Assembly (NCBI GenBank): GCA_964478085.1
Contig: CAYZGY010000001.1
Coordinates: 1-49,835 of the forward strand
DNA: 49,835 nucleotides
Direction of reading: 5' to 3'
From: an uncultured Planctomycetia bacterium
GTDB taxonomy: Bacteria; Planctomycetota; UBA8108
This document shows positions 14,601-33,665 of this stretch, in pieces. Under the pieces are notes generated by a model. The model was not told the DNA's origin, ran no database searches, and saw only the letters and a list, made by a program, of their open reading frames with translations. Position numbers and translations under genes: made by a program. How positions within the stretch are numbered: position 1 is the stretch's first letter; every line of letters starts with the position of its first letter.

Positions 14601-17046
14601 GCCGAACCGCTTCGGCTACCCGGACTACGAGCCCGCCAACTTCAAGGACGTCAAGGACAAGAAGCTCAAAGAGGCGCGCGAGAAGATCGACAAGCTCGAG
14701 GACTTCGAGAAGCCGAAGAAGCGCGACAACGAGAACGACCAGGCGCACCTGACGCGCACGTGGAACAAGCTCCTCCTCTCGGAGAAGTTCCTCGATCACG
14801 TCCCCTCGAGCGTCCGCGACAAGGCGAAGGCCAAGGATCTCGAGAAGAAGCTGACGGACTACCCCACGAAGGTGAAGGGCCGCACGGCCGAAGACGCCGA
14901 GGCGCTCGAGATCAAGCGAGAGCTACTCAACAAGTACTACGGTCTGCCGAAGTACTCGCTGCCCCCTCCGGGCAACTTCAACGCTCTTCAGGGGACGGGA
15001 AGCCAGAAGCTCATCGCGATGAACCGTCACACGGGCGAGATCGTCTGGGAGGTCGGCTCGAAGCACTATATTCGTCACAACACGATCGTGGCGGGTGGCG
15101 GACGCATCTACTTCATCGATCGTCTCTCCGATGCGATGGCCGGATTCCTCCGTCGTCGTGGTCACAAGATCCCCGACGATACCGCCGTCGTCGCGATCGA
15201 CGCGAAGACCGGCAAGCGCGCCTGGACCGCGACCAAGCGCGTCTTCGGCACCTGGCTCGGCTACTCGGACGAGCACGACGTGCTCCTCCAAGCCGGAAGC
15301 AAGTCTCGTGACCGTGCGAACGACGAGGTCGGCCAAGGCATGGTCGCCTACCAGGGCAAGGACGGAAAGGTCATCTGGGAGAACAACGACAAGTACGAAG
15401 GGCCGTGCATCCTCATCGGGTCGGAGCTCTTCACCCAGGGCCACAAGAGTCCCGGCTTCGCGATGGACCTCCTGACCGGCAAGCGGAAGAAGCGAAAGCA
15501 CCCGATCTCGCAGCAGGAGGTCGACTGGCAGTACACGCGCCACTACGGCTGCAACACGGCGATCGGGTCGCCCAATCTGCTGACCTTCCGCTCCGCGGCC
15601 GCGGGCTACTTCGACTTGGCGTCGAACAGCGGAACGGGCAACTTCGGCGGCTTCCGTACCGGATGTACGTCGAACCTGATTCCCGCGGGCGGCATCCTCA
15701 ATGCTCCCGACTACACGCGCACCTGCACGTGCTCGTATCAGAACCAGGCTTCGCTCGCCCTCGTCCACATGCCCGAAGCGGACATCTGGACGTTCAGCGC
15801 GCACTCTCACGACGGCGGCGTCGTCAAGAACCTCGGCCTCAACCTGGGCGCGCCCGGTGATCGTCGCGGACCGAACGGCACGTTCTGGATCGACTACCCG
15901 AGTGTCGGAGGCAAGTCGGCCGACGTCGGCGTCAGCGCGAAAATCGACGGTGCTCGCTACATTCGCCATCACTCGACGCACATCCAGTCGGGCGATCTCC
16001 GCTGGGTCGGGGCCTCGGCCGTCGAAGGCGCGGGCGCGGTCACCGTCACCGTCGCGCAGCAAAAGAACTTTTCGATTCCGAACGCCGTACGAGGCGGATC
16101 CGTGCTCCAGGTCGAGCGAGGGCTCCAGCACGGAGAGGTCCCTGTCGAGAACGTCCCCGCGTACAAGGCGAAGAACACGAAAAGCCTCGGCAAAGCTGGC
16201 GGCAAGGAGAAGCTCGCTGCCAAGATCACAGGCGACGATCACCTCTCTCCCGAGAGCATCACGGTCGAGCTCTGGGTCAAGACCGACGCCGACTTCGACT
16301 TCGTCGATGCGCGCACGGGCGGCAAGAGCTCGAAGCACGGCTTCGTCTTCGACAACCGCAAGCTGCGCGCTCGTTACTTCGTCGCCAACAAGAAGGGCGA
16401 CGACAACGAAAACTACATCACGATCGAGTCGAAGAAGGCGATCCCGAACGACAAGTGGGTCCACATCGCGTTCACCTACGACGCCGAGACGGGCGTCGGC
16501 AAGATCTACCAGAACGGCAAGGTCGTCGCCGAGCACGACGGCGAGGACAACCGCCCGCTCTGGTGGGACAAGGACGAGCCCGACTACCTCGTCGCGAAGG
16601 AGCTCGGAAGCGACAAGACGCTCGTCGACGAGCTGCGGATCTCGCGCAAGACTCTGAAGCCTGGACAGCTCCTGAGAGCGAAACGGCAGGGAAAGCAAGG
16701 CCGACTCGCCAAGCGCACTGTCGCTGGCTACTGGCGAATGAGCGCCTCGCCCTCGGAGACTCTCGCGCAGAGCAACCTCTACCGCGTCAGGCTCGTCTTC
16801 GCCGAGGTCGCCGATCTCGGCCCGGGCGAACGCGTGTTCGATGTCGAGATCCAAGGCCGGCGAGTCCTCGAGGACTTCGACATCGCCAAGGAGGCCGGCG
16901 CGCCGCGCAAGACCGTCGTGCGTGAGTTCGAGCACATCCCCGTACGCGGGCCGCTCGAGGTGAAGCTCATCCCGAAGAAGGGCGCGAAGCCCTTGCTGAG
17001 CGGGGTCGAGCTCGTGCACGAGCTTTCGCAAGCCCAGGATTTCTGA
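11620..17046 (+). CDS. Giant secreted PQQ/BamB-like beta-propeller protein with a GYGD beta-sandwich, an embedded class I methyltransferase-like fold, a second propeller, a LamG-like domain and a malectin-like C-terminus
   Basis: 1808-aa ORF, GTG start preceded by GAAGGA, with a signal peptide.
- Propeller blades: VTAYDTETSKELWSF...GYLYAVNAADGSLHWKF.
- GYGD module: GKIGYGDDDVV at about 13048-13536.
- Rossmann-like segment: VFVFGLGSGRLVEELA...HVIGFDKD.
- Second propeller blade: LRALDIYTGNMLWE.
- LamG-like: ITVELWVKTD...WVHIAFTYDAETGVGKIYQNGKVV.
- Malectin-like: YRVRLVFAEV...ERVFDVEIQG. Confidence 0.9.
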   Translation: MTKRGRNLLWTIALASFLCVGFASLWQRPNAAAQEGAIQTGDWPMWRGNAQRGGTTPGELPNELHLSWILDLPEPIPAWPSTQDKLQFDRLYEPVVLGKRLFVPSMISDKVTAYDTETSKELWSFYTDGPVRFACVAWKDKVYFTSDDGYLYAVNAADGSLHWKFRGGPNDRKVIGNYRLVNMWPARGGPVIYDDKIYFGASIWPFMGIFVHALDAETGKVIWTNSGTGSNWITQQHNSPAFAGIAPQGYLAATEDYLVLAGGRTMPAVYERKTGAFKHYNVASRKMGSKGGGGFDVVVGENFYINRGAMYRMDNGHFLQKMDALLINEHAIICHGDDGVRGFRPRWEEEITKDRKGKVTKKVVVKKAWSTPLDKKVTKVFLQAGGKLFGLGENKRLVGVDISNLLTGARVIWSQEIPDEPLNMIAADGKLFVSTDHGRIYCFSGKKPATPVKLPEPPPAPKVVEPVKTDPAVLITEDSVWKFWDKRDAPAGNWSTVDFDDKAWGAGKGKIGYGDDDVVTKISFGDNKDKKPLAAYFRHAFELAKNEIPADAKDKKIKIELSVDDGAIAYLNGAEVGRIRMPNGKVDSKTKAAANAAKESDFDTLEIDAALFRAGINVLAVAVHQFKPTSSDLALRAKMPRGIFVAQKQDAAEKKMPPERKRDERFEDPQDEYTKLAASLLADSSAKVGYVFVFGLGSGRLVEELAAQTTLHVIGFDKDAKKVAELRRRFDSLGVYGHRISISHFDPLTVGLPQFAAELIAFGDDKILEGREREAVDVVFRSLRPYTGAAFLSASSKSARAFLDAAGTAKLDGGVAEKVGDFVALRRPEPPKGSGEWTHQYGTVGNSVSSTDTQVKAPLGLLWFGGPSNANVLPRHGHGPTPQVAHGRLFIEGRHMLRALDIYTGNMLWERTLKDLGKDYDYTSHEPGANALGSNYVSLADAVYVVHENKCLKLDPQTGVTTATFELPKHEDPAKSPKWGYVGVYKDLLLAGVMPNRFGYPDYEPANFKDVKDKKLKEAREKIDKLEDFEKPKKRDNENDQAHLTRTWNKLLLSEKFLDHVPSSVRDKAKAKDLEKKLTDYPTKVKGRTAEDAEALEIKRELLNKYYGLPKYSLPPPGNFNALQGTGSQKLIAMNRHTGEIVWEVGSKHYIRHNTIVAGGGRIYFIDRLSDAMAGFLRRRGHKIPDDTAVVAIDAKTGKRAWTATKRVFGTWLGYSDEHDVLLQAGSKSRDRANDEVGQGMVAYQGKDGKVIWENNDKYEGPCILIGSELFTQGHKSPGFAMDLLTGKRKKRKHPISQQEVDWQYTRHYGCNTAIGSPNLLTFRSAAAGYFDLASNSGTGNFGGFRTGCTSNLIPAGGILNAPDYTRTCTCSYQNQASLALVHMPEADIWTFSAHSHDGGVVKNLGLNLGAPGDRRGPNGTFWIDYPSVGGKSADVGVSAKIDGARYIRHHSTHIQSGDLRWVGASAVEGAGAVTVTVAQQKNFSIPNAVRGGSVLQVERGLQHGEVPVENVPAYKAKNTKSLGKAGGKEKLAAKITGDDHLSPESITVELWVKTDADFDFVDARTGGKSSKHGFVFDNRKLRARYFVANKKGDDNENYITIESKKAIPNDKWVHIAFTYDAETGVGKIYQNGKVVAEHDGEDNRPLWWDKDEPDYLVAKELGSDKTLVDELRISRKTLKPGQLLRAKRQGKQGRLAKRTVAGYWRMSASPSETLAQSNLYRVRLVFAEVADLGPGERVFDVEIQGRRVLEDFDIAKEAGAPRKTVVREFEHIPVRGPLEVKLIPKKGAKPLLSGVELVHELSQAQDF

Positions 17047-19089: not shown

Positions 19090-22000
19090 TCAGGTACAAG
19101 GGGCGTAAGACTCGCAACTGAGCGCGTCCGCCGTTTCGTCGAAGTCGCAGCTAGCGAACGGATCGCGCGGCGGCTCTCCGCCCAGAAAGAGGAAGTTCAG
19201 AAGGGTCACCGAGTCGCTCAAGTTGACTCGTCCGTTGTCATCCGTATCGGCCGTGCGAAGACAGCCAGGAGCTTCCGCACCGAGAAAGAGGTGCTGGAGT
19301 GTCGCGATGGCGTCGGTGAGATCTCTGCGCCCGTCCGCGTTGACATCGCCACGAAGGAACTCGCGTTTCCCCGCATCGAAGTACGCCTCGACCGTCGCCG
19401 TGCCGACGACCTCACCTCGAGCGTCGAGGCCCTCGATCAAGTAGTCGCGGTCACCCGGATCGAGCTCGATGCTCGCTCGCCACTGCCCGACGCTGCGCCA
19501 TTCGAGCAGGATCGGCTCACCGTCCACGTGGAGTCGTTCCATGGCGAGCGGTCCGTTGCCAGAGAGAAGGAGCTCGCTCCGAGTCGTCACCACGGGAGAT
19601 CGGGGTGAGATCACTCGAAACTCAGGATTTCCGATCGCCGTACGAAGGTAGCTGGCACGCGTCGCGATGTACCCTTTGACCCTCTGCGAGGGGCTGGCGA
19701 GGCGAACCGCGCCGGCAGGTGTACGGCGCAAAAAATTGAAATTGCCGTCGAGAATCGGGTGCAGCACCTCCGTGCTGTAGAAGCCATCGAGGAGCGTCTC
19801 AATCTCTCGATAGAACCGACGCGTGTAGCTCGGATACGTGAGAAAGCGCCGAATCAGCGGGCGGTTCGTCAGGATAATCGGCGCGCGGGGATTGAGAGTG
19901 TCCGGCCACAGGTCGCAACAAGTCCCCATCGCGACGTCGTGATCCCACGGAATGAACATCCACTTGCCACCGGGTGGCCGGTAGAGGTAGACGTTCTTTC
20001 CCGTCTGTCCACCCACGGCGTCCCAATCAGCCGCCGTTCGAAGCGCCGCCGACATATGAATCCACTGGTCGACGTCGGCCAGCTCCTCGAACCTCGATTC
20101 GAACTCGCTGATCGGGGTCTGGTTCGGATCGAGCACGCGGAGCAGCTCGCGGAGCCCCGAGAAATCATCTTGGCGCTCTCGCGATCTCGGCTTGAACTGA
20201 AACCGCAACGTCTCCTTGTCCTCGAAGAACCTCCACGGGCCCGCCTGCGTGACAGCTCCACCGCTCGAGTTCGTCTCGTAGTGGGAGTCGACCTTGTAGA
20301 GCTCTCCCTCCGCTGTTCCGAAAGAGCTCTCGAGATACCGGTCGTCGACGACGAGAACGTCCTCGTAGAGACCGAAGCGGTTTCCACGAACGATGACCTC
20401 GATGTGCTGTCGCTGTCCGAAGGGGATTCTCCCCGTCTTCTGCATGAGCAGATGCATCGTGCGATCGACTTGAATGGTCGGATCCGGCAACGCATCGTCG
20501 AGAACGATGCGAACGGCACCGTGGAACGAGCTCTCGTCACGCAGACGAATTCTGAACGCCTGGCGCTCACCGGGAATGACTCGAACGAACGTGCTACCCT
20601 TATAGCGGAGGTCGGCGAGATGAAAGATCCTCTCGTCCCGATAGACGAGGGATGCAGGGAGCGGGTGGTTCGAGTGAGGGGAGCGACGCCGGAGCGTCGC
20701 GTAGTCGCCCGATCGCATGACGATGCGATAGCCGGGCAGCGGGCCCGAGTCGATTCCGTCGTCGTAGGTGAAGACGTACGAGTCGTGCCCCTTCTGTGCA
20801 GGTGACATTCGAGAGCGACCTCCGCCGTCGGTCGCGACGATACGGAACTCCCCCACCTGCGCCGCTCGTGCGCGTCCGGGGATCTCCACCGTATAGATCG
20901 AGTCGCCCGCGACCGAGTCCGGAGCGACGCCGTCGTCGGCCATGTTCCGACTCTCGAAATCCGCCTCTCCGTCGAGGCGGAAGAGCGTGCTGACCGACGA
21001 GAGCCCGTCGGAGTCACGAACTCGCGCCGTGAGAATCACCGATTCATCCGGAGCCGGAAGAGCGGGGAACTGCTCAACATTCGAGATGACGGGGCCTGTG
21101 TTTTCCGACGCACGACTGTTGGCTCTCCCCGGCGTGCCGCCGGCCCCAGGCACGGAGAGACGCGTCGTTCGTGCGAGGAAGTGACCCCAGTTGCGCACCA
21201 TGAGAAGATCCGATCCTCGGAGCCAGCGCACCTTGAATCGCACGCTGTAGACTTGTCCGCCGAGCATCGGACGAAGGGTACGCTGCTCGACGTGATTGAG
21301 CTGGGAGTCTCCGCGACGCGACGCGACGAGATGAAGGGCGTTGCTCCCATCGGCGCCAGTACCCTCTTCGACGAAGCTCTCGACGTGCGTTCCTTCCGCA
21401 CGCCAAACGCCAAGATCATCACCAGCTTCGAAATTCCCGTTCGCGATGAGACTGTTCCCACGTGAATCCTCGACCTCGAGATCGTCGATCAGGGCCTCCC
21501 CGGCTCCGAAGAGCCAAAGGTGAAACTCGTTCGCGGTCCCGCTGTTCTGACGAATCTCGTACTCGACCGTCCTCCACTCCGACTCCGCCGAGTGATCACT
21601 CTCGCGCCAAGCCGCTCCGGCGGAGTTGTCTTGCGCCGAGTCGATGAGCTCGAGCGACGGTCCGTCACCGTCGGCCCAAGGGCTCCAGCTGCCTTCGTCG
21701 AAGTATCGAACTTCGTCGACGGGAAGATCGCCGGCATCGATCAGGCGAAGCATCTCCCCCTGATTCGAGAGGATACCCTCCCAGGGTCCGAGGACGCCTT
21801 CGAGCCCGTAAACCTCCGCGACGTGTAGCGGATCGCGCGCGACGACGAGGAATTCCCCCGCGGCAAGCACGGTCGGTCGCGGGAATTCGAAGCGGATTCC
21901 GTTCGAGAATCGGTAGCCTCCGAGATCGACGTCCGTATCTCCGGTGTTCACGAGCTCGACGAACTCTTCGGCGTCGTCCTCCGAGTACGGATTGTAGTGA

Positions 22001-22962
22001 ATCTCGCTGATGACGATCGACGGGCGCTCAGGCATCGAGTTCGTCGCACCGGGGCTCGCGGGCAGCGCGAGCCAGCGATTCGCTCCGTCGGGGTAGCGCC
22101 CCGTGACGATAGGTGCTGCCGCCGCGTCTTCCGGATCGATCGCGCCGACGCGGTGGGCATCGACGACTCGAGCGCCGCCTGGCGCAAACAGAGCGATTCG
22201 ATCGCCGTTGGGATCAAGCGCGAGGCCGCTGTCTGCCTCGCGAACGACGTAAAATCCACCGGCCTCGACGGACGCACCCGCCGGCATCGTGTAGGCAACT
22301 TCCGAGACGAAGTCCGAGCCCAGTGCGTAACCTTCGAGCTCGACGGCTTCCGCGCCCGGATTGTAAATCTCGACCCAACCGTTCCCGTCTTCACGACTGA
22401 CTTCGTTGACGATCAGCTCGGGAGTCGCGATAGAGAAATCGAGAACTCCGGGCGTCCCGCCCATCTCGACACTCGCGCCCCAGCTCTCCCCTTCGTTCGC
22501 ATCGAGCAAGACATCGCGGAGGACGATCGACGGCCCGTAGCCGTCGGCGGTCGACGGCCAGCGTCCGCCATCGTTGAACGAGACGATCTGCCGAACCGAA
22601 CCGTACGAGTCGGCGATGCCGATCTTCTCACCCCCGTTGTCGAGACGACCGACGAACGGACCGAACGGCGCACGCGTACCTTCGGGCATCGGCAACTCGT
22701 CGGGAACGGCGGCGACCACGACGACACCGTGCGGCTCGATGATCGTCCCTTCCGGGAAGAAGTACTCGATCCCGCCCTGAATCTGGAAACCCGAGATATC
22801 GACGGGGAGCGGATCGTCGCTGTAGACCTCGATGAACTCGAGCGCCATCTCCTCTTCACTCGTCCCGAGTGGATTGTAGTGAATCTCGATGATGTACAGA
22901 CGAGCAAAGCTTGGCGCGGTGGCGAAAATCCAAATCGAGAATGCGAGGGCGAGACGTGTCAT
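19090..22962 (-). CDS. Secreted CotH-family (atypical kinase fold) protein with three lamin-tail domains and a C-terminal dockerin-like module
   Basis: 1290-aa ORF with AGGAG 6 nt upstream of the ATG and a signal peptide.
- LTD motifs: LYIIEIHYNPLG...EFIEVYS; LIVNEVSRED..WVEIYNPG; IVISEIHYNPYSEDDAEEFVELVNTG.
- CotH motifs: FGLYEDVLVVDDRYLESSF...GELYKVDSHYE and NVYLYRPPGGKWMFIPWDHDVAMG.
- Tail: FLRGDVNADG...SCDFDETADALSCESYAPC at 19090-19359. Confidence 0.9.
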   Translation of the reverse strand: MTRLALAFSIWIFATAPSFARLYIIEIHYNPLGTSEEEMALEFIEVYSDDPLPVDISGFQIQGGIEYFFPEGTIIEPHGVVVVAAVPDELPMPEGTRAPFGPFVGRLDNGGEKIGIADSYGSVRQIVSFNDGGRWPSTADGYGPSIVLRDVLLDANEGESWGASVEMGGTPGVLDFSIATPELIVNEVSREDGNGWVEIYNPGAEAVELEGYALGSDFVSEVAYTMPAGASVEAGGFYVVREADSGLALDPNGDRIALFAPGGARVVDAHRVGAIDPEDAAAAPIVTGRYPDGANRWLALPASPGATNSMPERPSIVISEIHYNPYSEDDAEEFVELVNTGDTDVDLGGYRFSNGIRFEFPRPTVLAAGEFLVVARDPLHVAEVYGLEGVLGPWEGILSNQGEMLRLIDAGDLPVDEVRYFDEGSWSPWADGDGPSLELIDSAQDNSAGAAWRESDHSAESEWRTVEYEIRQNSGTANEFHLWLFGAGEALIDDLEVEDSRGNSLIANGNFEAGDDLGVWRAEGTHVESFVEEGTGADGSNALHLVASRRGDSQLNHVEQRTLRPMLGGQVYSVRFKVRWLRGSDLLMVRNWGHFLARTTRLSVPGAGGTPGRANSRASENTGPVISNVEQFPALPAPDESVILTARVRDSDGLSSVSTLFRLDGEADFESRNMADDGVAPDSVAGDSIYTVEIPGRARAAQVGEFRIVATDGGGRSRMSPAQKGHDSYVFTYDDGIDSGPLPGYRIVMRSGDYATLRRRSPHSNHPLPASLVYRDERIFHLADLRYKGSTFVRVIPGERQAFRIRLRDESSFHGAVRIVLDDALPDPTIQVDRTMHLLMQKTGRIPFGQRQHIEVIVRGNRFGLYEDVLVVDDRYLESSFGTAEGELYKVDSHYETNSSGGAVTQAGPWRFFEDKETLRFQFKPRSRERQDDFSGLRELLRVLDPNQTPISEFESRFEELADVDQWIHMSAALRTAADWDAVGGQTGKNVYLYRPPGGKWMFIPWDHDVAMGTCCDLWPDTLNPRAPIILTNRPLIRRFLTYPSYTRRFYREIETLLDGFYSTEVLHPILDGNFNFLRRTPAGAVRLASPSQRVKGYIATRASYLRTAIGNPEFRVISPRSPVVTTRSELLLSGNGPLAMERLHVDGEPILLEWRSVGQWRASIELDPGDRDYLIEGLDARGEVVGTATVEAYFDAGKREFLRGDVNADGRRDLTDAIATLQHLFLGAEAPGCLRTADTDDNGRVNLSDSVTLLNFLFLGGEPPRDPFASCDFDETADALSCESYAPCT

Positions 22963-22971: not shown

Positions 22972-23724
22972 CTACCGCCACGTGAGAAGTTCGGCGGTAG
23001 TGCTGATTATCCGGTACTGCCGCGAAGATGCGAACGGTCTGATCCGAACCCGCGAATGCGAGGCGTCGACTTTCAGGCACAGCTCGAGCCCGAAGATTTC
23101 ACTTCCCACGTCGAAGAAGAGCGTCGGCTTCCCTCGCATTGGCGCCCAGTTGCTCACCCTTCCGCCCTTGGACCCTGCGGCCAGGCGCTCACCGTCGGGG
23201 CTCCAGTCGATCGAGTGGAGGTGGCTCGCGGGACCCGTCAGCTCATGGATGATCTCATCGGTGGTCGTGTCGCAGACGAAATCCGAGCGGTGCTGGCTGA
23301 ACGCGAGGTATCGTCCCTCGGGGCCCCAGTCGAAATCGAAGCCGTGGTTGCCGTACTCCGTCGGAAAGAGCGTCATCTTTTCCCGCGGCGGAGGAGACTT
23401 CAGCGCCCGGGCGACGATGTCCGAGCAGTACATCGCCACGCGCTTCCGCGTCTTTGCGTCGAAAATCCGAAGCGTCCCATCGAAGCTGATCGCGGTGATC
23501 TGCTCACCATCGGGTCAAAATCGAGCCGAGCCGACACGTGCTTCGGATTCCGGGATCTTGAACAAGACCTCGGGCGGAGACGCCGCGAGATCCCAGACGG
23601 CCATCCGGGGGCGGATGTGCAAGAGTTCGACGCGGCGCGGTGCCGCGTTCACGATCCCGAGTCTCGAAAACGCCAAGATCTCCGTCCGGGAAGCGGCCGC
23701 GATCGGATCGGCCAGAGCCGTCAT
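22972..23724 (-). pseudogene. WD40-repeat gene interrupted by an in-frame TGA (23515-23517)
   Basis: One minus-strand frame reads ...MAVWDLAASPPEVLFKIPESEARVGSARF-TGA-PDGEQITAISFDGTLRIFDAKTRKRVAMY...HLHSIDWSPDGERLAAGSKGG.... The stop sits where the WD40 consensus F-S-PDG has Ser. The 5' limit is uncertain. Confidence 0.65.
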
Positions 23725-23996
23725 CGCCGCTTCGGAAGACCCACCTGGCCCGATTCGGTTCTCTGCCTGGGTTCGCAGAACTGCAAGCGCAGGGCCATCT
23801 ACCGACGCACGAGCCGGGACCTCTACCAGGAACTCGACCCTGCCAGCCCGCAAAAGCGAGCTCGAGCGTAGCGCCGACCCGGTTCCTCCGGGTCGACGCG
23901 GAGATCGAGCCACGCGGCGCATCGCCGCGTCGTGACGTCATCTCGACATCCGCCGACCTTGCAGACGCTCACGCCCCGACGCCCGCCTCTCCGACG

Positions 23997-24891
23997 GAGA
24001 TCGGCCCATACCGTGTCGTCGAGCTCCTCGGTGAGGAAGGAATGGGACGCGTCTTCCTCGCCGAACAGGAGAGACCGCTGCGCCGCACTGTCGCGCTCAA
24101 GGTGATCAAGCCCGGCATGCAGAGCGAGGAGGTCGTCAAGCGCTTCCGCGGAGAGTGCCAAGCGCTCGCGCTGATGGACCGTCCGAACATCGCGCACGTC
24201 TTCGACGCCGGCACGTCGGATGACGGACATCCGTACTTCGTGCTCGAGCACGTTCGTGGCACGAAGATCACCGAATTCTGCGACTCGGCAAGAATGACCG
24301 TCGACGACCGCTCGAAGCTCTTTCTCCAAGTTTGCGCCGCCGTCGAGCACGCGCACGGACACGGCCTCCTCCATCGGGATCTCAAACCATCAAACGTCCT
24401 CGTCGCCGACACCGAAGGGGATCCGTGTGCCAAGATCATCGACTTCGGCGTCGCACGAAGCCTCAAGGGTAATCTGACCGAGCATTCGTTTCACACGCAG
24501 GCCGGGCACATCCTCGGGACGCCTGCCTAGATAAGTCCCGAGCAAGCTCGCCTTGACGGTTCGGAGGTCGACGCCCGCAGCGACATCTACTCGCTCGGCG
24601 TGCTCCTCTACGAGCTTCTCGTCGGTGAGCTTCCGCACGATTGGGAGTCGCTGTCGAAGCTCGCGTTCGACGAGGTGCTGCGACACGTACGAGAGAGCGA
24701 CTCGCCCTCGAACGAGAGCTCGTAGAGCGTGGTGACGAGTTTTCGCCGACGGCCATCGACCTCAGCATCGAATCGCTGTCGCAATTCGGCCGCTGTCAGC
24801 TCTGTGAAAGTACCAAATCGTCTCGATGCGTGCTCTCGGCGAGCGGAGCGCAGCGAAGCGGTTTCTCGCCGCCGATGACTTGCAACGACTG
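23997..24891 (+). pseudogene. Ser/Thr protein kinase paralogue, inactivated by an in-frame TAG, a frame change, and loss of the start and of everything after the kinase domain
   Basis: - Kinase motifs: IGPYRVVELLGEEGMGRVFLA...VALKVIK...HRDLKPSNVLV...KIIDFGVAR.
- GTPA-TAG(24528-24530)-ISPEQ sits where the intact paralogue (30441) has GTPEYMSPEQ.
- The frame ends at about 24724.
- Subdomain XI (IVSMRALGERSAAKRFLAADDLQRL) reappears in another frame at 24817-24891.
- Stretches of clear nucleotide similarity to 31131-31311 were seen by eye. Confidence 0.75.
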
Positions 24892-25113: not shown

Positions 25114-28100
25114 TTAGCCCTCGAGGTCCTTTCCACAGTCGGGGAACGGGGCCGGAGGCGCCGCGCCGCCGCGGAAGAGGTAGCCGAGGCCGGCGATTGC
25201 GTCGCCGAGGTCGAGCGTGTTGTCACCGTTCGTGTCGGCCGAGACGCGGCAAGGCGGCGCCTGGTGGCCGAGGAAGAGGTGGTTGAGAGTGAAGATCGAA
25301 TCGCCGAGGTCGAAGCCTCCGTCTCCGTTCGCGTCACCGCGAATGAAGTCGGTTCCTTCGTCGCCTTCGGGGGAGCGGAGCTCGACCGCGGTCGAGGCGA
25401 CCGGCTCGGGGTCTCCGTCACCGTTGTTGTCGATTCGCAGGATAATGTCGTAGAAGACGAACGGCTCGTGATCGAGGACGAGGGCTTCGACCTCGACGTT
25501 GTTGTCGTTCGACCCCGGCGGGAGCTTCACCGTGCGCACGACCGGCTCTCCCGGGGGCAGACCGTCGAGCGAGATGTTGTTTTTTCCGAAGGGCGGCATG
25601 GCCTCGATCACGACGTCGACGACGAGCGCCTTGTCCGTGTGGTTCTCGAGCATGAAGCCCGGACGGATCGGCGTGCCGATCTCCTGCTGGAGGACGAGGT
25701 CGACCGGGATCGCCTTGATCTCGTTCGAGTGGATCACCGAACCGATCGAGCCGTACCCGTCGCCCGTCGACATTTCCGAGACGACGTGGCAGCCGGTCTC
25801 GAGGTTGTAGGCGTTGACCTCGAAGCAGCTCGCACCCTCTTCGTGGATGTTGCTGCAGTCGACGCTGACGTACGCGATACCGGTGTCACCGGGGTTGACC
25901 GTCATCGTGCCGTTCGAGGGCGAGAAGCCGACCGGGCCGGGGAGATCACAGTAGCCGGCGGGCAGCGAGTTGATATCCCACGCGTAGTTCTGCGGGGTGC
26001 CCGTCGGGTTGTGGATCTGAACCGCGATCGTCGCCTTGCCGTTGCAGCAGGGAGCTTCCCAAGTCGTCGAGACGATACCCGTGTCGTCGACACAGGGGCA
26101 GCAGAGCTCGAGCTCGAGAGTCATCCAATCGATGCCGGTGTCGTCCTGGATCATGACGCCGAGGTCGCCGTCCTGGAGCGAAGCGAGCACGCTCGTCGTG
26201 CCCCACTTGTCCGCGGGCAGGTTACCGAGATCGAGGCAGATCTCCGCGTCGCTGTGGGCGCCCCAGGCACCGACGATCGACGCGATACGTGCACCCCAAA
26301 CCGGCGTGGCGCCGTCGAAGAGCTGGATCGTGTCGTTGTGAGCGAGCGAGCTCTGGCTGGCGCGGATTCGCATGCAGAGTTGCGCCTTGACGACGCAGCA
26401 GTCGTCCTCCCAGCACTCGCGGAAGGTGTGACCGACCGCGCGGTCGCCGGGGAGCACGTCGAGCTGCGTGAGAGCGCCACCGCTGATCGTCTGCATGTGC
26501 GCGAGGAGGGCCGGGTCCGGATCGAGGAACTCGGGCGTCGAGGTGTCGAAGTCGTCGGGCTCTCCGACCTCGCAACGCTCCTGCCGCATCTCGCCTTCGC
26601 AACCCTTCTTGTTACCGAAGTCGACACCGCCGACCGAGACGTTGCCGTACGTCGAGACCGGCTGCGTCACCGAGCCGGGAGCCGTCTGCGTCCAACCAGG
26701 CGACTGAACCTCGTTGACGACGTAGTTGGCCGGAGCGAGACCGCTGAAGCTGTAGTTGCCGCTCGCGTCGGTCGAGGTCGTCGCGACGACCGTACCGCTC
26801 GAGTCGCGCAGCTCGATCGCCCAACCGGGGATCCCGTTCTCGCTGCCGTCCTTGATACCATTGCCGTTGACGTCCTCGAACTTCTGTCCCGTGATCGAGG
26901 TAAAGCAGCAGACTTCCGTCTCGAGGATCATGAAGTCGACACCCGTGTCGTCCTGAATGAAGACGTCGAGGTCGCCGTCCTGGAGAAGCGCGAGCACGTT
27001 GGTGATACCAGCCGTACCGCTCGGCGGCAGGTTGGCGAGATCGAGTGTCAGCACGGCCGAGTCACCCGGGTTCCAGGAACCGCCCGCGAGCGCCGCAATC
27101 TTGCCACTCCACGAGAAGGAACCGTCGTCACCGAACGAGATCGTGTCGTTGTAGCAGAGAGGATCCTGACCGGCGCGCAGCGAAATGATCAGGCGAGCCG
27201 CGACGACGACACAGCCCTTCTCCCAGCAGCGCTTGAACGTGTGACCGAAGCAACGGTTCGAGGTCAGGTCGTCGAAGGCGAGTCGCGGACCGTTGCTGCA
27301 GTTCTGCATGACCGCGAGGAGCGCGGGTGAAGGCTGAGCGTTCGGCTCTTCGTTCGTCGTGTCGAACTCGTCCTCGAGACCGACGAGGCAAGCCGAGTGG
27401 ATCGGCTCTTCGCAGCGCTCGACGTTGCCGAAGTCAGCGATGTAGACGTTCTCGCTCTCGAGGCTGCCGCAGACGTCGATCGTGTGCGTCACCGTCGTCG
27501 GGTAGGTCTGCACCCAACCGGCCTGCTGAATCTCCGCGACCGTGTAGACGCCGGGCTCGACCTCGATGCAGTAGCGACCTTCGGCGTCCGTGACGACGCG
27601 GTAAGCCTGCGTCGGGCCGACGAGGTCGATCTCCCAACCGGGGAGACCCGGCTCGTCAGAATCCTGGACGCCGTCACCGTCGAGGTCGTTGAACTTGACG
27701 CCGCAGATCGTGCCGGGGAGGCAGGGGCAGCAGACGTCGAGCTCGAGCCGCGCGAAGTCGACGCTCGAGTCGTCCTGAATGTAAACGCTGAGCGAACCGT
27801 CCTGGACGTGCGAGAGGACGTTGGTGACACCGGCGCCACTCGCGGGCAGGTTGGCGAGGTCGAGGACGAAGGTCTCGTCGGACCCCACTCCCCAGGTGCT
27901 CGAGGTCGAGAGATTGGCGAGCGACTGGTACCAGACGGCGCCCGAGCCTTCGATGAATCCGATTCCGTCGTTTCCGCTGAGACAACCGTGACCGCGAACG
28001 CGGATCGTCAGGCGACCACCGACGACGCGGCAGGAAGGATCGAGCGGAACGGAAAGCGTGTGACCGAAGCACCGGTTGCAGACGTCCGGCGTGTCGAACG

Positions 28101-29505
28101 AGGTCTGCGCGCCGGCACTGCAGTCGCTGAGGAGGTCGACGAGGTCGTCGTTCGGCGAGGTCGGCTCGTCGTTCGTCGGGTCGAAGCCATCCTCTTCGCC
28201 ACCTTGTGCGACGAACGTCTTGGGATCGTCACAGACCTTCATGTTTCCGAACGTGACCTTCGAGTGAATCTGACCAGGGACCCAGTTGAGGTTGTACGAG
28301 CCGGTCGAAGGAGCGGTCTGCACCCAACCGGCCTGCGAGCCTTCCCAGATGTTGTAGGTGCCCGCGAGAGTCGCCTGGTAGCTCCAGTAGCCGTTGGCGT
28401 CCGTGAGGACCGAGACGCCGAGGTTGTTCGGCGGAACGATGTTGATGACCCAGCCAGCGACCGGCTGCTCGCCACTGTCCCAGACGCCATTGCCGTTCGC
28501 GTCCTCGAACTTGTGACCGCTGAACTCCGGACGGCAACAGTAGGTGACCGTCAGCTCCATGTAATCGACCGCGGTGTCGTCCTGCACGAAGACGTCGAGC
28601 GAGCCCGACTGGAGCGCCGAGATCATGTTGACCGTCGTCGATCCGGGACCGGGGAGCGCTGCGAGATTGAGAGTGATCGTCTGGTCGCTTCCGGCGGTCC
28701 AGGGGCTACCGACGAGCGAGCCGATGTTCTTGCCCCACGAGGTGTTTCCGTTGCTACCGAGCGAAAGCGTGTCGTTGTGCGAGAGACCGAAGCAGCCGTG
28801 GTTCGCACGCATACGGATCGTCAGACGAGCACCGAGGACGTAGCAGTCGCGCGGCTTGATGTTCGTAAACGTGTGGCCGAAGCAGGTGTCGCACTTCGGG
28901 TTGTCGAAGTCGCTCCAACGACCTTCGCAGCCGGGGCGCGCTTGCTGCATCGCGCTTCCCGGGCTCGCCGGCTCGTTGTTGCCAAGGGCGAAGTTGTCGT
29001 TGGCGCCGGCCTTGTGCGTCTTCTGCTCGCGATGCTGTCGCGGACACTTCACCGCAATCGCGAAGTCGAGGGCCGTGAACTTGCGGCCTTCGACGAGGTG
29101 AACCGAGTGGCCACCCGTGGGGGGCGAGATCGGCACGCCCTCGGTGTCCTGACCGACCTGCACGTAGTAGGTCTCGTCGAGCTCGAGGCCGTCGAACTGG
29201 AAATGGCCACGCTCGTCGGTGACTGTCGTGCGTGTGTCGAGCGGCGAGTGGGCCTCGACGAGAACGCTGCAGAGCATCGCTTCGCCGACGTCGACCTGTC
29301 CGTTGCCGTTCACGTCGTCGAAGATTTTACCGGAGATCGATCCGCCCCTCGGTTCGGCGGGATCAGGATCAGCAGGGTCTACCGGGTCGACGCCGTCCTG
29401 TGCGAAGGTCAGGACGCTCGCCGTGAAGAGGAAGAGAAGAGTCCAGATACAGCAGCGCGTCGTGCGCAAGCTGACGAGGTCAGAGGGGCTCTTGGGGCGG
29501 GACAT
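25114..29505 (-). CDS. Giant secreted protein: SdrD-B/Cna-B-like units alternating with an unassigned Cys-rich module (x4), Ig-like domains, and a C-terminal dockerin-like module
   Basis: - The track ORF extends to 29586.
- ATG at 29505 is preceded by AAGGAG and gives MSRPKSPSDLVSLRTTRCCIWTLLFLFTASVLTFAQ, a signal peptide.
- SdrD-B-like motifs: GKIFDDVNGNGQVDVGE, GHKFEDANGNGVWDSGE, GVKFNDLDGDGVQDSDE, GQKFEDVNGNGIKDGSE.
- Tail: FIRGDANGDG...PDCGKDLEG at 25114-25347. Confidence 0.9.
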   Translation of the reverse strand: MSRPKSPSDLVSLRTTRCCIWTLLFLFTASVLTFAQDGVDPVDPADPDPAEPRGGSISGKIFDDVNGNGQVDVGEAMLCSVLVEAHSPLDTRTTVTDERGHFQFDGLELDETYYVQVGQDTEGVPISPPTGGHSVHLVEGRKFTALDFAIAVKCPRQHREQKTHKAGANDNFALGNNEPASPGSAMQQARPGCEGRWSDFDNPKCDTCFGHTFTNIKPRDCYVLGARLTIRMRANHGCFGLSHNDTLSLGSNGNTSWGKNIGSLVGSPWTAGSDQTITLNLAALPGPGSTTVNMISALQSGSLDVFVQDDTAVDYMELTVTYCCRPEFSGHKFEDANGNGVWDSGEQPVAGWVINIVPPNNLGVSVLTDANGYWSYQATLAGTYNIWEGSQAGWVQTAPSTGSYNLNWVPGQIHSKVTFGNMKVCDDPKTFVAQGGEEDGFDPTNDEPTSPNDDLVDLLSDCSAGAQTSFDTPDVCNRCFGHTLSVPLDPSCRVVGGRLTIRVRGHGCLSGNDGIGFIEGSGAVWYQSLANLSTSSTWGVGSDETFVLDLANLPASGAGVTNVLSHVQDGSLSVYIQDDSSVDFARLELDVCCPCLPGTICGVKFNDLDGDGVQDSDEPGLPGWEIDLVGPTQAYRVVTDAEGRYCIEVEPGVYTVAEIQQAGWVQTYPTTVTHTIDVCGSLESENVYIADFGNVERCEEPIHSACLVGLEDEFDTTNEEPNAQPSPALLAVMQNCSNGPRLAFDDLTSNRCFGHTFKRCWEKGCVVVAARLIISLRAGQDPLCYNDTISFGDDGSFSWSGKIAALAGGSWNPGDSAVLTLDLANLPPSGTAGITNVLALLQDGDLDVFIQDDTGVDFMILETEVCCFTSITGQKFEDVNGNGIKDGSENGIPGWAIELRDSSGTVVATTSTDASGNYSFSGLAPANYVVNEVQSPGWTQTAPGSVTQPVSTYGNVSVGGVDFGNKKGCEGEMRQERCEVGEPDDFDTSTPEFLDPDPALLAHMQTISGGALTQLDVLPGDRAVGHTFRECWEDDCCVVKAQLCMRIRASQSSLAHNDTIQLFDGATPVWGARIASIVGAWGAHSDAEICLDLGNLPADKWGTTSVLASLQDGDLGVMIQDDTGIDWMTLELELCCPCVDDTGIVSTTWEAPCCNGKATIAVQIHNPTGTPQNYAWDINSLPAGYCDLPGPVGFSPSNGTMTVNPGDTGIAYVSVDCSNIHEEGASCFEVNAYNLETGCHVVSEMSTGDGYGSIGSVIHSNEIKAIPVDLVLQQEIGTPIRPGFMLENHTDKALVVDVVIEAMPPFGKNNISLDGLPPGEPVVRTVKLPPGSNDNNVEVEALVLDHEPFVFYDIILRIDNNGDGDPEPVASTAVELRSPEGDEGTDFIRGDANGDGGFDLGDSIFTLNHLFLGHQAPPCRVSADTNGDNTLDLGDAIAGLGYLFRGGAAPPAPFPDCGKDLEG
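26092..29001 (-). repeat. Four protein-level super-repeats with a period of about 272 aa; the Cys-rich units lie at about 28531-29001, 27721-28197, 26905-27378 and 26092-26562
   Basis: The four copies align by eye. Shared motifs are C-x2-CFGHTF (copy 4 has VGHTF), C-x-V-x2-A-x-L-x-I-R, NDT, (L/N)L(A/G)(N/A)LP, LQ(D/S)G-x-L-x-V-x-IQDD(T/S)-x-(V/I)D, and a terminal CC. Confidence 0.85.
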
Positions 29506-29701
29506 GGGTGACTCCTTGAGGCTTTGCGGTTGGGGGGGACGTCGTGTTGGTCGCCTGCGGTCCGGCCGGGCCCGTCTCGCGACCAAGGAGCCAGTGTGTC
29601 GGGAGTCCGGGAGATAACGGTGGAGTGGGAAAAAAGGCGGGAATTCCTCGGCGGCGCCCGAAAGCGTGAAAATAGCGGGGTTTCGGAGGGTTCAACGAAC
29701 G

Positions 29702-30355
29702 CTAATCGCGCTCGAGCTCCTCGAAAATCGACCCCGGAAGCTTGTCCCGCAGCTTCTGAAGCGCCCGCTGATACTGGACCGCGAGCACCTTCGGGTCTCG
29801 CTGGAGAACCACCCCGATCTCCTTGTAAGACTGCCCCTCGATCCCGCGGAGAATGACGATCTCGCGGTCCTTCTCCTCGAGCTTCTCGAGGAGTCCGTGC
29901 GCCGTGTCGCCGGCTTCCTGGCGGACGAGCCGGCTGACGACGCCCGTGCGCTCGTCGGCGAGGCGGTCGACGGGGTCCGACGATGTGGTATCGCCGGGAC
30001 GACCTCCCCCGCCCTCGCGCTTCGGCTTGCCCCGAATGTGCTTCTCGACGAGGTTGTTGACGCGGTAGACGAGCGTCGTCGAGAGGAACTTGAGAAGCAC
30101 GGGAGTGTAGCGCTCGTCCCGAGCCGGTAGCTCGGGCAGCTTGGGAAGCGCGACGAGCCAGACGTCGTTGACGAGATCTTCGGGGTCGTAGAGCCCCCCG
30201 AGCACCTTTCCGAGACGGTAGCGAGCGTTGGCGAGCAGCATGGGAGAGAGCCGCTCGACCACCCAAGACAGACTGCTCGTATCGCCCTTTCGCGCCCGTC
30301 GGACGTGAAAAGACGTCAGAGCCTCGCGATCTTCGGGCGAACTGTCGGCTGTCAT
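29702..30355 (-). CDS. ECF-type RNA polymerase sigma-70 factor
   Basis: 217-aa ORF. Region 2 reads DLVNDVWLVALPKL and region 4 reads EIVILRGIEGQSYKEIGVVLQRDPKVLAVQYQRALQKLR. No anti-sigma-like ORF lies adjacent. Confidence 0.9.
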   Translation of the reverse strand: MTADSSPEDREALTSFHVRRARKGDTSSLSWVVERLSPMLLANARYRLGKVLGGLYDPEDLVNDVWLVALPKLPELPARDERYTPVLLKFLSTTLVYRVNNLVEKHIRGKPKREGGGGRPGDTTSSDPVDRLADERTGVVSRLVRQEAGDTAHGLLEKLEEKDREIVILRGIEGQSYKEIGVVLQRDPKVLAVQYQRALQKLRDKLPGSIFEELERD

Positions 30356-30440: not shown

Positions 30441-33400
30441 ATGACCGACCCGCGCGACCAAGAATCACCAGGCGTAGCGAACGCGTTCCTCCAGCTCTTC
30501 CTGGAAGATCGCGCCGCGGGTCGCGATCGGCCGCTCAAGGAGTACCAGCAGCGCTTTCCGGGCTTCGAGACCCTCATCGCCCGAGAGTTCGAGCGGCTGA
30601 GCTCCGCGGTGGGCCCACGGTCCGCATCCGACACCTCGCACGACGCGATGAGCTACGCGTCCCCCGGTGTCGCCGTCCCCGAGATTCCCCACGAGTCGAT
30701 CGGCCCGTACAAGCTGCTCTCCGTTCTCGGCGAGGGCGGCATGGGCGTCGTCTACCTCGCGTCCCAGAAAGAGCCGATCGAGCGGCGCGTTGCGCTCAAG
30801 CTCGTCAAGCTCGGCATGGACACGCGCGAGGTGCTCGCGCGGTTCGAGAGTGAGCGCCAGGCCCTGGCGCTGATGAACCACACGAACATCGCGAAGGTGC
30901 TCGACGCGGGGACGGCGCCGGACGGCCGTCCTTTCTTCGTCATGGAGCTCGTCCAGGGCGTCCCGGTGACGAAGTTCTGCGATCAGCAGCAGCTTCGGAC
31001 GCGCGATCGTCTCGAGCTGTTCACCCAGATCTGCGAAGGCGTTCAGCACGCGCATCAAAAAGGCATCGTCCACCGCGACCTCAAGCCCTCGAACGTCCTC
31101 GTGACCTTCGACGGCGATCGTCGCGTCGTCAAGATCATCGACTTCGGCGTCGCGCGGTCGCTCAATCAGCGACTCACCGAACGAACCGTCTTCACGCAGT
31201 ACGGTCAGATCGTCGGCACGCCCGAGTACATGAGTCCCGAGCAAGCGACGATGGACGCGACCGACGTCGACACGCGCACGGACATCTACTCGCTCGGCGT
31301 CCTTCTCTACGAGCTCATCGCCGGCGCGCTCCCCTTCGACTCGAAGACGCTGCGCAGCGCGGGCTACGAGGAGATCCAACGCAAGATCCGTGAGGTCGAG
31401 CCGCCGAAGCCGAGCACGAAGCTCAGCAGCATGGGCGAAGATTCGTCCGTGGTCGCCCAGCGACATGGAACGGCGATTCGATCGCTCGTTCGCGAAGTTT
31501 CCGGTGATCTCGACTGGATCACGATGAAGGCGCTCGACAAGGATCGCACGCGACGATACTCGAGCGCGTCGGAGCTCGCTGCAGACGTTTGGCGTCACCT
31601 CAGGGAGGAGCCGGTACTCGCGGGGCCGCCATCGGTCTCGTATCGATGTCGCAAGTTCGTCAGGCGGCATCGGCGAAATCTTGTCACCGCGGCATTCGCG
31701 CTCGTGGCGATCGCGGCGACCACGTCTATCGTCTGGCGCAACTCGAAGATCGAGGCCGAGAGAGTTCAACGCGAAGAGACGGAATCGCTCATCGCACAAG
31801 GAACGGAAGTCCTCGCGGCCTACCGAGTGCTCGTCCGCGACACGATCCCCGAGCATGCCGACGCGACCGAGGTTCTCGTCCATGAACGCCGCTCGAACAA
31901 GCTCACTTGGTACCCACCCTGGCATCCCGAAGAGCAACGGCGACTCGGACGACATCGTGCACGCGAGAAGCTCGAGGCGGACGCGGACGCGAAGTTCTCG
32001 TCAGCGACAGGCCTTCTCAACGCGGCAATCACGCGGGCTCCGGACGACACGCTCCGTGCCGACGCGAACGCGGCGCTCGCCGAGCTCATCCAGCTGCGAT
32101 TCGAGCAGGCGACCACGCGCTCGTTCGACGGAGTCGGCACGGCGAAGCAAGCACGGGCTTTCTTTGTCGAGGAAGGCGAGGTCACCTCCCCAGACGCGAT
32201 TCCGATCCGAACGACGCCGATCGGCGCGGAAGTCCTTCTCTTTCGCTTCGTCGAGAGCGAGAACCGTCTCGTCCCGATCCCGTTCCACCCGAGCGCGGAC
32301 GCGTCCAAGACGGAGAGCGAGCTTCTCGAACGGATGATTCTCCGTGTCGAGCATGTCACGTCCTTGGTGTTGCTCTTGTACCTGTTGGCGGGCTACGCTA
32401 AGCGGAACGGCGGCGACCGCGTCACGAAGGTGAGTCGACGCTCGGTCAACTCTCGGACGCAGGTCGCCGAGGCCTTGCGAACCGTTCGCGTCGATCAGTC
32501 TGTGCCGATCGAGATCGAGCGCGACGGCACGACACTCGCTCTTTCGTGGACCCCCTTTCCGACGCGCGAGGACGAAGACGATTCCAACCCGCTCCGCTGG
32601 GCCGAAACGTGGAACGAGGGCGAGGTCGTCAACTTCCGCGTCCAGTTCGGCTTCATCTTCGAGGGCTCCCCGATCGAGCTGAGCGACGGGAATCGACTCG
32701 GCGAGACGCCGTTGCCCCCGCAGCATCTATCGGTCGGCAGCTACCTGCTCGTCTTTCGGCTCGACGGGCACGTCACGGCGCGTGTCCCGCTCTCGCTTCC
32801 GGGGCCTTCGTCCGAGATCGAAGTGAATCTCGTCACCGAGCTTCCCGAGAACTTCGTCCACGTCCCCGCGGGTCCGGCGGAGCTCGGCGGCTTCGACTCG
32901 GGTTTTCGCCAACAGATTCCGCACGAAGTTCGCGAGGTGCCCGCCTTCGCGATGGATCGGTGCGAGGTGACGCTCGGTGAGTACCTCGAGTTCCTCAACG
33001 ATCCCGAGGTGCGCGCGCGAATCGACGAGAAGGGAAGAGCGGGGCCCGCGGCCAACTGGGATCACCCGCAGTGGCGCCACGCCAAGCCGGAGGAGGACGA
33101 GCGCATCCTGCTCGTCCCATCTTCGCGAAGCCAGCTCAGGCTCGTCCGAAGTGACGACGGATCCTGGGGTGTCGGTGAGAATGACTTCCCTCTCGACTGG
33201 CCCGTCTTCGGCGTCTCGATGCGAGCAGCGGTCGAGTACGCGCACTGGCGCACGCAACAGAGCCAAGCCGATGCGGCCGCGAACGGAACACGCAGCTGGA
33301 CCTTCCGCATCCCGACCGACGACGAGTGGGAAAAAGCAGCACGCGGTGCCGACGGTCGACGCTACGTCTGGGGAAACCGCCTCGTCTGGAGCTACGCGCG

Positions 33401-33665
33401 CTGGGCGCTCAGCGCGACAAAAACGAACAATCGCCCCGACGCGATCGGCGTCTGTCCCATGGACGAGAGCGTCTACGGCATCCGCGACCTCGCCGGATCG
33501 ATGGACGAGCCGAGCAGCGGCCGCACCATCCCCACCCACGCCGCCTACCGCGGCGCCAATTGGTGGACCTCCGACCTCTACCGCGCCGAAGCCGCCACTC
33601 GATTCGGTGCGCGACCGGACCACGCGGACTTCGACCAGGGCATCCGGCTGGTGGTCGGGCTTTGA
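30441..33665 (+). CDS. Membrane Ser/Thr protein kinase with an extracytoplasmic FGE-sulfatase (SUMF1-like) domain
   Basis: 1074-aa ORF.
- Kinase motifs: LGEGGMGVVYLA, VALKLVK, HRDLKPSNVLV, DFGVAR, GTPEYMSPEQ.
- A single TM segment: LVTAAFALVAIAATTSIVW.
- C-terminal FVHVPAGPAELGG...FAMDRCEVTLGEYLEFL...FRIPTDDEWEKAARG...GIRDLAGSMDE...YRGANWW...QGIRLVV is FGE-sulfatase type. Confidence 0.92.
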   Translation: MTDPRDQESPGVANAFLQLFLEDRAAGRDRPLKEYQQRFPGFETLIAREFERLSSAVGPRSASDTSHDAMSYASPGVAVPEIPHESIGPYKLLSVLGEGGMGVVYLASQKEPIERRVALKLVKLGMDTREVLARFESERQALALMNHTNIAKVLDAGTAPDGRPFFVMELVQGVPVTKFCDQQQLRTRDRLELFTQICEGVQHAHQKGIVHRDLKPSNVLVTFDGDRRVVKIIDFGVARSLNQRLTERTVFTQYGQIVGTPEYMSPEQATMDATDVDTRTDIYSLGVLLYELIAGALPFDSKTLRSAGYEEIQRKIREVEPPKPSTKLSSMGEDSSVVAQRHGTAIRSLVREVSGDLDWITMKALDKDRTRRYSSASELAADVWRHLREEPVLAGPPSVSYRCRKFVRRHRRNLVTAAFALVAIAATTSIVWRNSKIEAERVQREETESLIAQGTEVLAAYRVLVRDTIPEHADATEVLVHERRSNKLTWYPPWHPEEQRRLGRHRAREKLEADADAKFSSATGLLNAAITRAPDDTLRADANAALAELIQLRFEQATTRSFDGVGTAKQARAFFVEEGEVTSPDAIPIRTTPIGAEVLLFRFVESENRLVPIPFHPSADASKTESELLERMILRVEHVTSLVLLLYLLAGYAKRNGGDRVTKVSRRSVNSRTQVAEALRTVRVDQSVPIEIERDGTTLALSWTPFPTREDEDDSNPLRWAETWNEGEVVNFRVQFGFIFEGSPIELSDGNRLGETPLPPQHLSVGSYLLVFRLDGHVTARVPLSLPGPSSEIEVNLVTELPENFVHVPAGPAELGGFDSGFRQQIPHEVREVPAFAMDRCEVTLGEYLEFLNDPEVRARIDEKGRAGPAANWDHPQWRHAKPEEDERILLVPSSRSQLRLVRSDDGSWGVGENDFPLDWPVFGVSMRAAVEYAHWRTQQSQADAAANGTRSWTFRIPTDDEWEKAARGADGRRYVWGNRLVWSYARWALSATKTNNRPDAIGVCPMDESVYGIRDLAGSMDEPSSGRTIPTHAAYRGANWWTSDLYRAEAATRFGARPDHADFDQGIRLVVGL

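Follow-up and report, generated by a model that had tools for sequence, protein, structure and literature searches.

An unnamed extracellular jelly-roll module, repeated four times in a planctomycete surface protein, as a candidate lectin-like head

PA14 adhesin lectins bind vicinal sugar hydroxyls through a Ca2+ ion, held in place by two consecutive Asp residues ('DcisD') together with a second loop (PMC8092209, PMC6650083). Here we describe a module of ~170 aa that occurs four times in a secreted surface protein encoded on the minus strand of a 49,835-nt stretch of DNA (contig CAYZGY010000001.1 of assembly GCA_964478085.1, hereafter the window) from an uncultured Planctomycetia bacterium, and that very probably represents a new and real family of extracellular jelly-roll domains. 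The PA14/GLEYA lectins of MpIBP, MhLap, Flo5 and Epa1 resemble the module in being beta-sandwiches of the same size carried by very long repetitive surface adhesins, and both systems display a consecutive, near-invariant Asp pair on one loop together with an Asn/Asp on a second loop. However, the module matches neither PF07691 nor PF10528, no PA14 structure is found among its top 50 Foldseek matches, and it is predicted to fold as a plain eight-strand jelly roll in which the Asp pair lies in a tight b7-b8 hairpin, within Q-D-D-T-x-V-D. We use this comparison as a lead from the literature, by analogy, and not as a claim of membership.

Jelly-roll carbohydrate-binding modules (CBMs) share the fold class, size and extracellular location of the module, and the Ca2+-dependent CBM35/36 offer a further analogy. 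The carbohydrate-binding domains (CBDs) 1 and 2 of BcsB, CBM8, CBM15 and CBM70 are among its best Foldseek matches, with E values of 2e-4 to 1e-2 and template-modelling (TM) scores of 0.31-0.47. In contrast to these, the module has no sequence relationship to any of them, its TM scores stay below 0.5, and among the Pfam families listed for 54 full-length relatives there is no fusion to a glycoside hydrolase or lyase, which is the usual context of CBMs, so that it is unlike a classical one. The NCBIfam choice-of-anchor families likewise combine one conserved extracellular domain with alternative sorting signals, but no existing model of that kind matches the module. SdrD B-like (prealbumin-like) repeats, which are its partners, are extracellular as well, and their own D-x-N-x-N-G-x-x-D loops bind Ca2+; they differ in being in-line stalk units of ~95-100 aa that Pfam recognizes. 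Cohesins of scaffoldins are also repeated jelly-roll modules in proteins with a dockerin-like end, whereas the module has neither a hidden Markov model (HMM) match nor a top-50 Foldseek similarity to them; to our knowledge, cohesins have no counterpart of the module's conserved acidic apex (see below). Repetitive adhesins that display beta-sandwich heads are a familiar design, and the novelty lies in a large and widespread sequence family.

A first-pass annotation of the window had proposed that a cysteine-rich module of ~155 aa recurs four times with a period of about 272 aa and alternates with SdrD-B-like units over nt 26092-29001. This span corresponds to residues 196-1165, residues being numbered here from the TTG at nt 29586 that opens a mechanically listed open reading frame (ORF) of 1490 aa (25114..29586, minus strand), with module residues given in the numbering of the third copy (M3). 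Both the repeat and the alternation were borne out. GHT(F/L) is found at aa 237, 508, 781 and 1052 and (I/V)QDD at aa 334, 603, 877 and 1146, with an observed spacing of 271, 273 and 271 aa. In local alignments, pairs of modules share 61-82 identities over ~165-174 residues (35-48% identical), with z values of 40-58 compared to shuffled sequences, and a joint alignment of all four, ~172 columns long, contains 35 invariant positions. The four-copy repeat is therefore real, ancient and far beyond chance, and its copies are too diverged to be an assembly artefact. Pfam recognized SdrD_B (PF17210) in four stretches of the protein (143.5 bits against a cut-off of 29.7, E 3.8e-42). Only the best of these stretches was located directly, the positions of stalk units 1-3 being the intervals between modules; the stalk intervals align mutually with z values of 6.7-27.6 compared to shuffles.

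The module is longer than had been proposed, with the conserved Cys and the first beta strand beginning ~16 residues further upstream. Its motifs had been read essentially correctly, with small deviations between copies. The conserved core of the acidic lead-in is G-x2-D-x-F. The first Cys of C-x2-CFGHTF is present in copies 1 and 2 only, and GHTF becomes GHTL in copy 2, in which the NDT motif reads NDG; copy 1 has VQDD in place of IQDD.

The complete protein consists of a signal peptide, four units of SdrD_B plus unnamed module, a beta-rich region and a dockerin-like tail (Table 1). From M28 onward it is identical to P0015, a protein of 1463 aa in public collections, which makes M28 (nt 29505) the likely true start. 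The signal peptide was read from the translation, where a basic n-region and a hydrophobic core are seen together with a cleavage-like site, TFA-Q. The region following the fourth module (aa 1167-1405) had no Pfam match, and single-sequence AlphaFold2 (AF2) modelling of aa 1164-1405 gave a poor model, with a predicted local distance difference test (pLDDT) score of 47.7 and a predicted secondary structure that contains no elements other than strands. This region is missing from the ortholog at the closest genome locus (L003, labelled uncultured Planctomycetia; 54% identical), in which all four units of SdrD_B and module are kept and collinear. Three more cluster representatives likewise carry four units. 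The dockerin-like tail of the window protein had no Pfam match, and the tail of the L003 ortholog matches Dockerin_1 (E 2e-5).

In the libraries searched, no named family accounts for the module. Pfam-A returned no family for the four copies at E≤10, and only two chance matches (E 0.016 and 0.22) for 32 diverse module instances sharing less than 42% mutual identity. NCBIfam, including its choice-of-anchor families, likewise returned no match for the four copies at E≤10, and a single chance match (E 0.042) for the 32 instances. Sequence-profile searches of the PDB had best E values of 0.56-0.73, over short chance stretches, and none below 0.5. Across the Pfam, NCBIfam and PDB searches, the queries were single copies, a 4-row profile and a 32-row profile. 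No Pfam family was common to all 54 full-length relatives, and a literature text search on strings of the module motifs retrieved unrelated papers only. Matches to the NCBIfam models PorU (T9SS_sortase) and TafC in some full-length relatives were rejected as representing the module: they were absent when the module was scanned alone, indicating that they stem from other domains of these proteins. One relative, scanned at full length, matched choice_anch_D at E 2.4e-4. In public entries the relatives are either a 'hypothetical protein' or carry one of two names, 'SdrD B-like domain-containing protein' and 'SpaA isopeptide-forming pilin-related protein', both of which derive from the stalk domain and not from the module. 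The suggestion that the module belongs to an undescribed family thus withstood every library and fold search that we made, with no HMM match and a best Foldseek TM score of 0.47, to generic jelly rolls.

This family is large. A word-indexed search yielded 14 short relatives (P0001-P0014), all of them single-module secreted proteins, and a profile scan of 1.84 billion cluster representatives (clusters at 50% identity) retrieved 1,806 at E≤1e-3, 1,235 at E≤1e-10 and 357 at E≤1e-30. Of the window protein and the 160 best-matching proteins taken together, 55 contain one module, 88 two, 10 three and 8 four, and many relatives carry two modules directly in tandem. Scanning one genome per species with a single peptide pattern identified 52 loci. 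The bacterial loci belong to Planctomycetota, Chloroflexota, Acidobacteriota, Ignavibacteriales/Kapaibacterium, Zixibacteria, Binatia, Patescibacteria, Verrucomicrobiota, Cyanobacteriota, Campylobacterota, Bipolaricaulota and others, and the archaeal ones to four groups (Halobacteriales, Woesearchaeota, Thermoplasmatota and one unclassified archaeon). One locus comes from a cultured source, Rohdeia mirabilis Pla163.

The module was also found on seven IMG/VR contigs with a GC content of 23-29%, five of which bear names of giant-virus metagenome-assembled genomes (MAGs). In L055-L060, labelled mostly as giant-virus MAGs, a single module lies in secreted proteins of ~430-450 aa (roughly aa 165-345, for example in the ORF L057:2452-3813) and is flanked on either side by CxGxC...CxC segments that look cystine-knot-like. 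ND is replaced by TD in these modules, and FGHTF and VVQDD(T/S)AVD are retained. At full length, the IMG/VR module proteins had no Pfam match.

A beta-sandwich had been suggested from the bracketing Cys pairs, and two lines of evidence agree with it. AF2 modelling of M3 with an 18-row alignment gave a pLDDT of 94.1 and a predicted TM score (pTM) of 0.90, with eight strands and a few short helices. We also carried out mean-field direct-coupling analysis (DCA) on 330 non-identical domain instances (effective number of sequences, Meff, 312; 14,028 pairs) and recovered antiparallel ladders for both sheets: b1-b8 (i+j ~177), b8-b3 (~241) and b3-b6 (~201) in sheet one, and b2-b7 (i+j ~208), b7-b4 (~245) and the b4-b5 hairpin in sheet two. 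The model and the ladders describe a canonical eight-strand jelly roll with BIDG and CHEF sheets. Such ladders make the N- and C-termini neighbours at one end of the domain and place the BC, DE, FG and HI loops at the other end. Foldseek comparison against the PDB returned jelly rolls only, and weakly (best E 1.8e-4, TM≤0.47), the top matches being a PorU domain, the BcsB carbohydrate-binding domains, Cry11 domain III, poxvirus D13, a PBCV capsid protein and CBM8/15/70; comparison against BFVD likewise gave generic jelly rolls only. Assignment of the module to the BcsB-CBD, PorU, Cry domain III or capsid families was rejected on these TM scores.

The His, N-D and Q-D-D-T clusters, which the first-pass annotation had compared to a metal or sugar site, are conserved family-wide (Table 1) and co-vary as a cluster, and such a site at these positions is plausible from the sequence pattern. 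Of the 105 possible pairs between conserved polar positions, 11 rank in the top 100 DCA pairs, compared to 0.75 expected. The couplings fall into two groups, one formed by D739-D772-D884 (group A) and the other linking N777/N813/D814 with Q878/D879/D880, plus W838-T881 (group B). The strongest coupling overall is F771-H782, and F771 adjoins D772. Jelly-roll topology combined with covariation would place both groups next to each other at the loop end, opposite the termini, where nine conserved Asp/Asn positions, one Gln, one His and one Trp would make up the apex. The view that the conserved polar residues form one functional site is supported. No apex residue is missing from any of the four copies in the window protein. 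M2 and M4 have lost D874, and M1 carries Asn in place of D849.

Table 1. Features of the surface protein gene (nucleotide positions in the window) and conserved residues of the module (M3 numbering; conservation over 279-345 module instances)
Feature	Position	Strand	Remarks
Secreted surface protein gene	25114..29505	-	1463 aa; ATG at nt 29505 = M28
Signal peptide	29401..29505	-	aa 28-62; MSRPKSPSDLVSLRTTRCCIWTLLFLFTASVLTFA followed by QDG; read by eye from the translation
SdrD_B-like stalk domain 1	29050..29349	-	aa ~80-179
Module copy 1 (M1)	28525..29049	-	aa 180-354; family HMM positions 2-172, E 8e-61
SdrD_B-like stalk domain 2	28237..28524	-	aa 355-450
Module copy 2 (M2)	27718..28236	-	aa 451-623; family HMM E 2e-57
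SdrD_B-like stalk domain 3	27418..27717	-	aa 624-723
Module copy 3 (M3)	26896..27417	-	aa 724-897; copy used for AF2
SdrD_B-like stalk domain 4	26605..26895	-	aa 898-994; best Pfam SdrD_B stretch aa 902-971
Module copy 4 (M4)	26089..26604	-	aa 995-1166; family HMM E 8e-58
Cys-containing beta-rich region	25372..26088	-	aa 1167-1405, ~240 aa
Dockerin-like tail	25117..25371	-	aa 1406-1490; two D-x-N-x-D-G-x-x-D loops, LF-x-G after each
D739			96% conserved
D772			98-99% conserved
Column 777			N or D, 93%
H782			76-78%; otherwise E, D, Y, T or Q
T/S783			97%
N813			81-83%
D814			99%
W826			84%
W838			89%
D/N849			93%
D874			87-88%
Q878			70-75%
D879			94-95%
D880			90-92%
T/S881			95%
D884			96%

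Cysteines were found to have two distinct distributions. The bracketing pair is a family trait, as had been proposed: among 345 instances, 83% carry the N-terminal Cys, before strand 1, and 94% the C-terminal one, where strand 8 ends; 79% carry the complete pair. These two residues probably form a disulfide staple. No internal Cys reaches 25% of instances. Such residues are lineage-specific, and 'cysteine-rich' accordingly describes the lineage of the window protein and does not define the family. The internal Cys co-occur in pairs (index 40 with 56, phi 0.77; 10 with 64, phi 0.74; 51 with 83, phi 0.88), and Cys171 accompanies Cys69 in 61 of 63 instances. Gain and loss in pairs is the pattern expected of disulfides.

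The extracellular location that had been suggested for the module agrees with the signal peptide of the window protein and with the surface anchors of its relatives. In the 54 full-length relatives, the module is combined with stalk-type domains (SdrD_B, CarboxypepD_reg/SpaA, LamG_3, DUF11), with FlgD_ig, FG-GAP, HYR and cadherin-like domains, and in one protein with a Peptidase_S8 (subtilase) domain; as anchors, these relatives have dockerin, the C-terminal domain (CTD) of the type IX secretion system (T9SS) and SLH. Dockerin_1 or dockerin_GC matches were obtained in 6-7 of these proteins. Single-module homologues from several lineages are made of a signal peptide, the module and a short tail. 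Across the family, the same module is thus followed by different C-terminal sorting signals, among them PEP-CTERM-like, T9SS CTD, dockerin and SLH signals as well as two other kinds of tail.

At least four types of tail occur in P0001-P0014 alone, including a PEP-CTERM-like one in P0014 and a dockerin-like one in P0001 and P0002. P0004, P0005, P0007, P0008 and P0009 share the tail motif ICHIPPGNPSNAQTITV...AHLNHGDTLG.C, and P0006, P0012 and P0013 the terminal motif GVEESSWGAIKAQYRK, neither of which has a Pfam match. The N-terminus of P0001, LLQDDTGGDFIELTVGCPC, is the end of another module copy that precedes the complete module, and the P0001 gene is probably 5'-truncated or mis-started. The gene contexts of two single-module homologues were uninformative.

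We hypothesize that the module acts as a Ca2+-dependent lectin-like head, a reading that we favour tentatively and hold at somewhat short of an even chance. Each module is very probably an autonomous secreted eight-strand jelly-roll domain, and its termini, brought together and stapled by Cys at the stalk end, would let it hang off the SdrD_B stalk like a lollipop, with the acidic apex of BC, DE, FG and HI loops facing outward, opposite the stalk. The apex would bind one or two Ca2+, and the ion or ions would act with the Trp of group B to hold a glycan by its vicinal hydroxyls. With four intact heads, a stalk stiffened by Ca2+ and the dockerin-like tail as a tether, the protein would gain avidity and adhere multivalently to a polysaccharide or a glycosylated surface. 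A wider proposal is that the module founds a new family of Ca2+-dependent lectins whose minimal jelly roll bears an acidic apex with two subsites, that archaea and bacteria of many phyla use it as an exchangeable head for adhesion, and that a cystine-knot-flanked form of it exists in giant viruses or their low-GC hosts. This proposal is possible but rather doubtful.

Several observations weigh against a lectin-like head. Among the 25 most frequent of the 35 Pfam families in the 54 relatives, there is no glycoside hydrolase (GH), polysaccharide lyase (PL) or carbohydrate esterase (CE) family. Clustering of the neighbouring genes revealed no conserved neighbourhood that could hint at a substrate, the most widespread family reaching at most 4 of the 52 loci. 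Per-domain identity between orthologs indicates that the modules diverge no more slowly than the stalk domains. No Foldseek match reaches a TM score of 0.5, and neither LecB nor a legume lectin is in the top 50, as is the case for PA14. His is an unusual Ca2+ ligand. The clustering at the apex was deduced from topology and covariation and not from model coordinates, and although the coupled residues may be in direct contact, coupling between near-invariant columns can also reflect their joint loss in degenerate copies.

A first alternative is a structural module whose acidic clusters bind Ca2+ only to rigidify it, in the manner of SdrD B repeats or cadherin-like spacers, and which adds reach and bulk to the surface fibre and has no ligand. 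The missing enzyme fusions and conserved neighbourhood, the equal rates of divergence of modules and stalk domains, the regular alternation with the SdrD_B stalk, collinear in four orthologs, and the direct tandems seen in many relatives all favour it. We nevertheless regard this explanation as unlikely, although it deserves serious consideration. Termini at the same end (ladder b1-b8) are ill-suited to an in-line spacer, and in the proteins of several lineages that comprise only a signal peptide, the module and an anchor, the module behaves as a head and not as a spacer. Moreover, two conserved Trp, along with ~13 polar positions that are also conserved and most of which belong to the loops of one end, exceed the usual needs of a structural site. 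The dockerin-like tails of the window protein, its ortholog and the dockerin-bearing relatives, together with a second dockerin-bearing giant protein encoded in the window (39594-43481), raise the prospect of a protein-protein module: a jelly roll of cohesin-like size could serve as the receptor for the family's own dockerin-like tails in a surface lattice, or as a homophilic cell-cell adhesion unit. Such a role is improbable given that Pfam yielded no Cohesin match, that no cohesin appeared among the top 50 Foldseek matches despite the many available in the PDB, and that most relatives are anchored differently (T9SS, PEP-CTERM, SLH) and lack a dockerin. In known cohesin-dockerin pairs, furthermore, the Ca2+ sites are in the dockerin and not in the cohesin.

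Catalysis is a further candidate function, by a small hydrolase or lyase, by self-cleavage at G-H-T, or by an intramolecular Thr-Gln ester or isopeptide cross-link, since H782-T783, Q878 and several Asp are conserved and autocatalytic cross-links are known in adhesin stalk domains. One relative is even annotated as 'SpaA isopeptide-forming pilin-related', though this name stems from its stalk domain. We consider a catalytic or autocatalytic module very improbable: H-T is predicted to lie in the middle of a beta strand and not in a strained turn, 24% of instances have E, D, Y, T or Q where the His would be, Gln is just 70-75% conserved, and the domain is small, with no predicted cleft and no conserved Lys for an isopeptide.

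The module overturns no concept but is worth an entry in domain databases, as it is the sole conserved part of many proteins called 'hypothetical' or named after their stalk domain, and its definition would bring annotation to about 1,800 protein clusters from environmental bacteria and archaea. If it is a lectin, it would give a clue to the adhesion targets of planctomycetes, Chloroflexota, Acidobacteriota, candidate phyla radiation (CPR) bacteria and some archaea, and a compact, disulfide-stapled, high-confidence scaffold would join the known Ca2+-dependent sugar binders. Should a new lectin family prove to be involved, it would be worth both a lectin/CBM family of its own and a further 'choice-of-anchor' entry.

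In the window, the adhesin gene is preceded at a distance of 196 bp by a co-directional ECF-type sigma factor gene (29702-30355, minus strand), and a gene for a protein that joins a Ser/Thr kinase to an FGE-sulfatase domain (30441-33665, plus strand) is divergent from the adhesin gene. This pair is not found beside the L003 ortholog. Downstream of the adhesin gene, a second kinase ORF (23640-24530, plus strand) gave a partial kinase-domain match, over profile positions 1-153 of 263. A 1317-aa ORF (7920-11873, minus strand) with no Pfam match at E≤1e-5 may encode another unannotated giant protein. With its PSCyt1/PSCyt2/PSD1 genes the window is Planctomycetota-like, and the contig is dense in genes for very large, apparently secreted multidomain proteins (19090-22962 and 39594-43481 on the minus strand; 11620-17046 and 2646-6905 on the plus strand). 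Their domain sets are three lamin-tail domains with CotH kinase; an N-terminal dockerin (1295 aa); a PQQ-like propeller with LamG_3 and malectin; and ThuA with F5/8-C, DUF7133, HEAT and cytochrome c.

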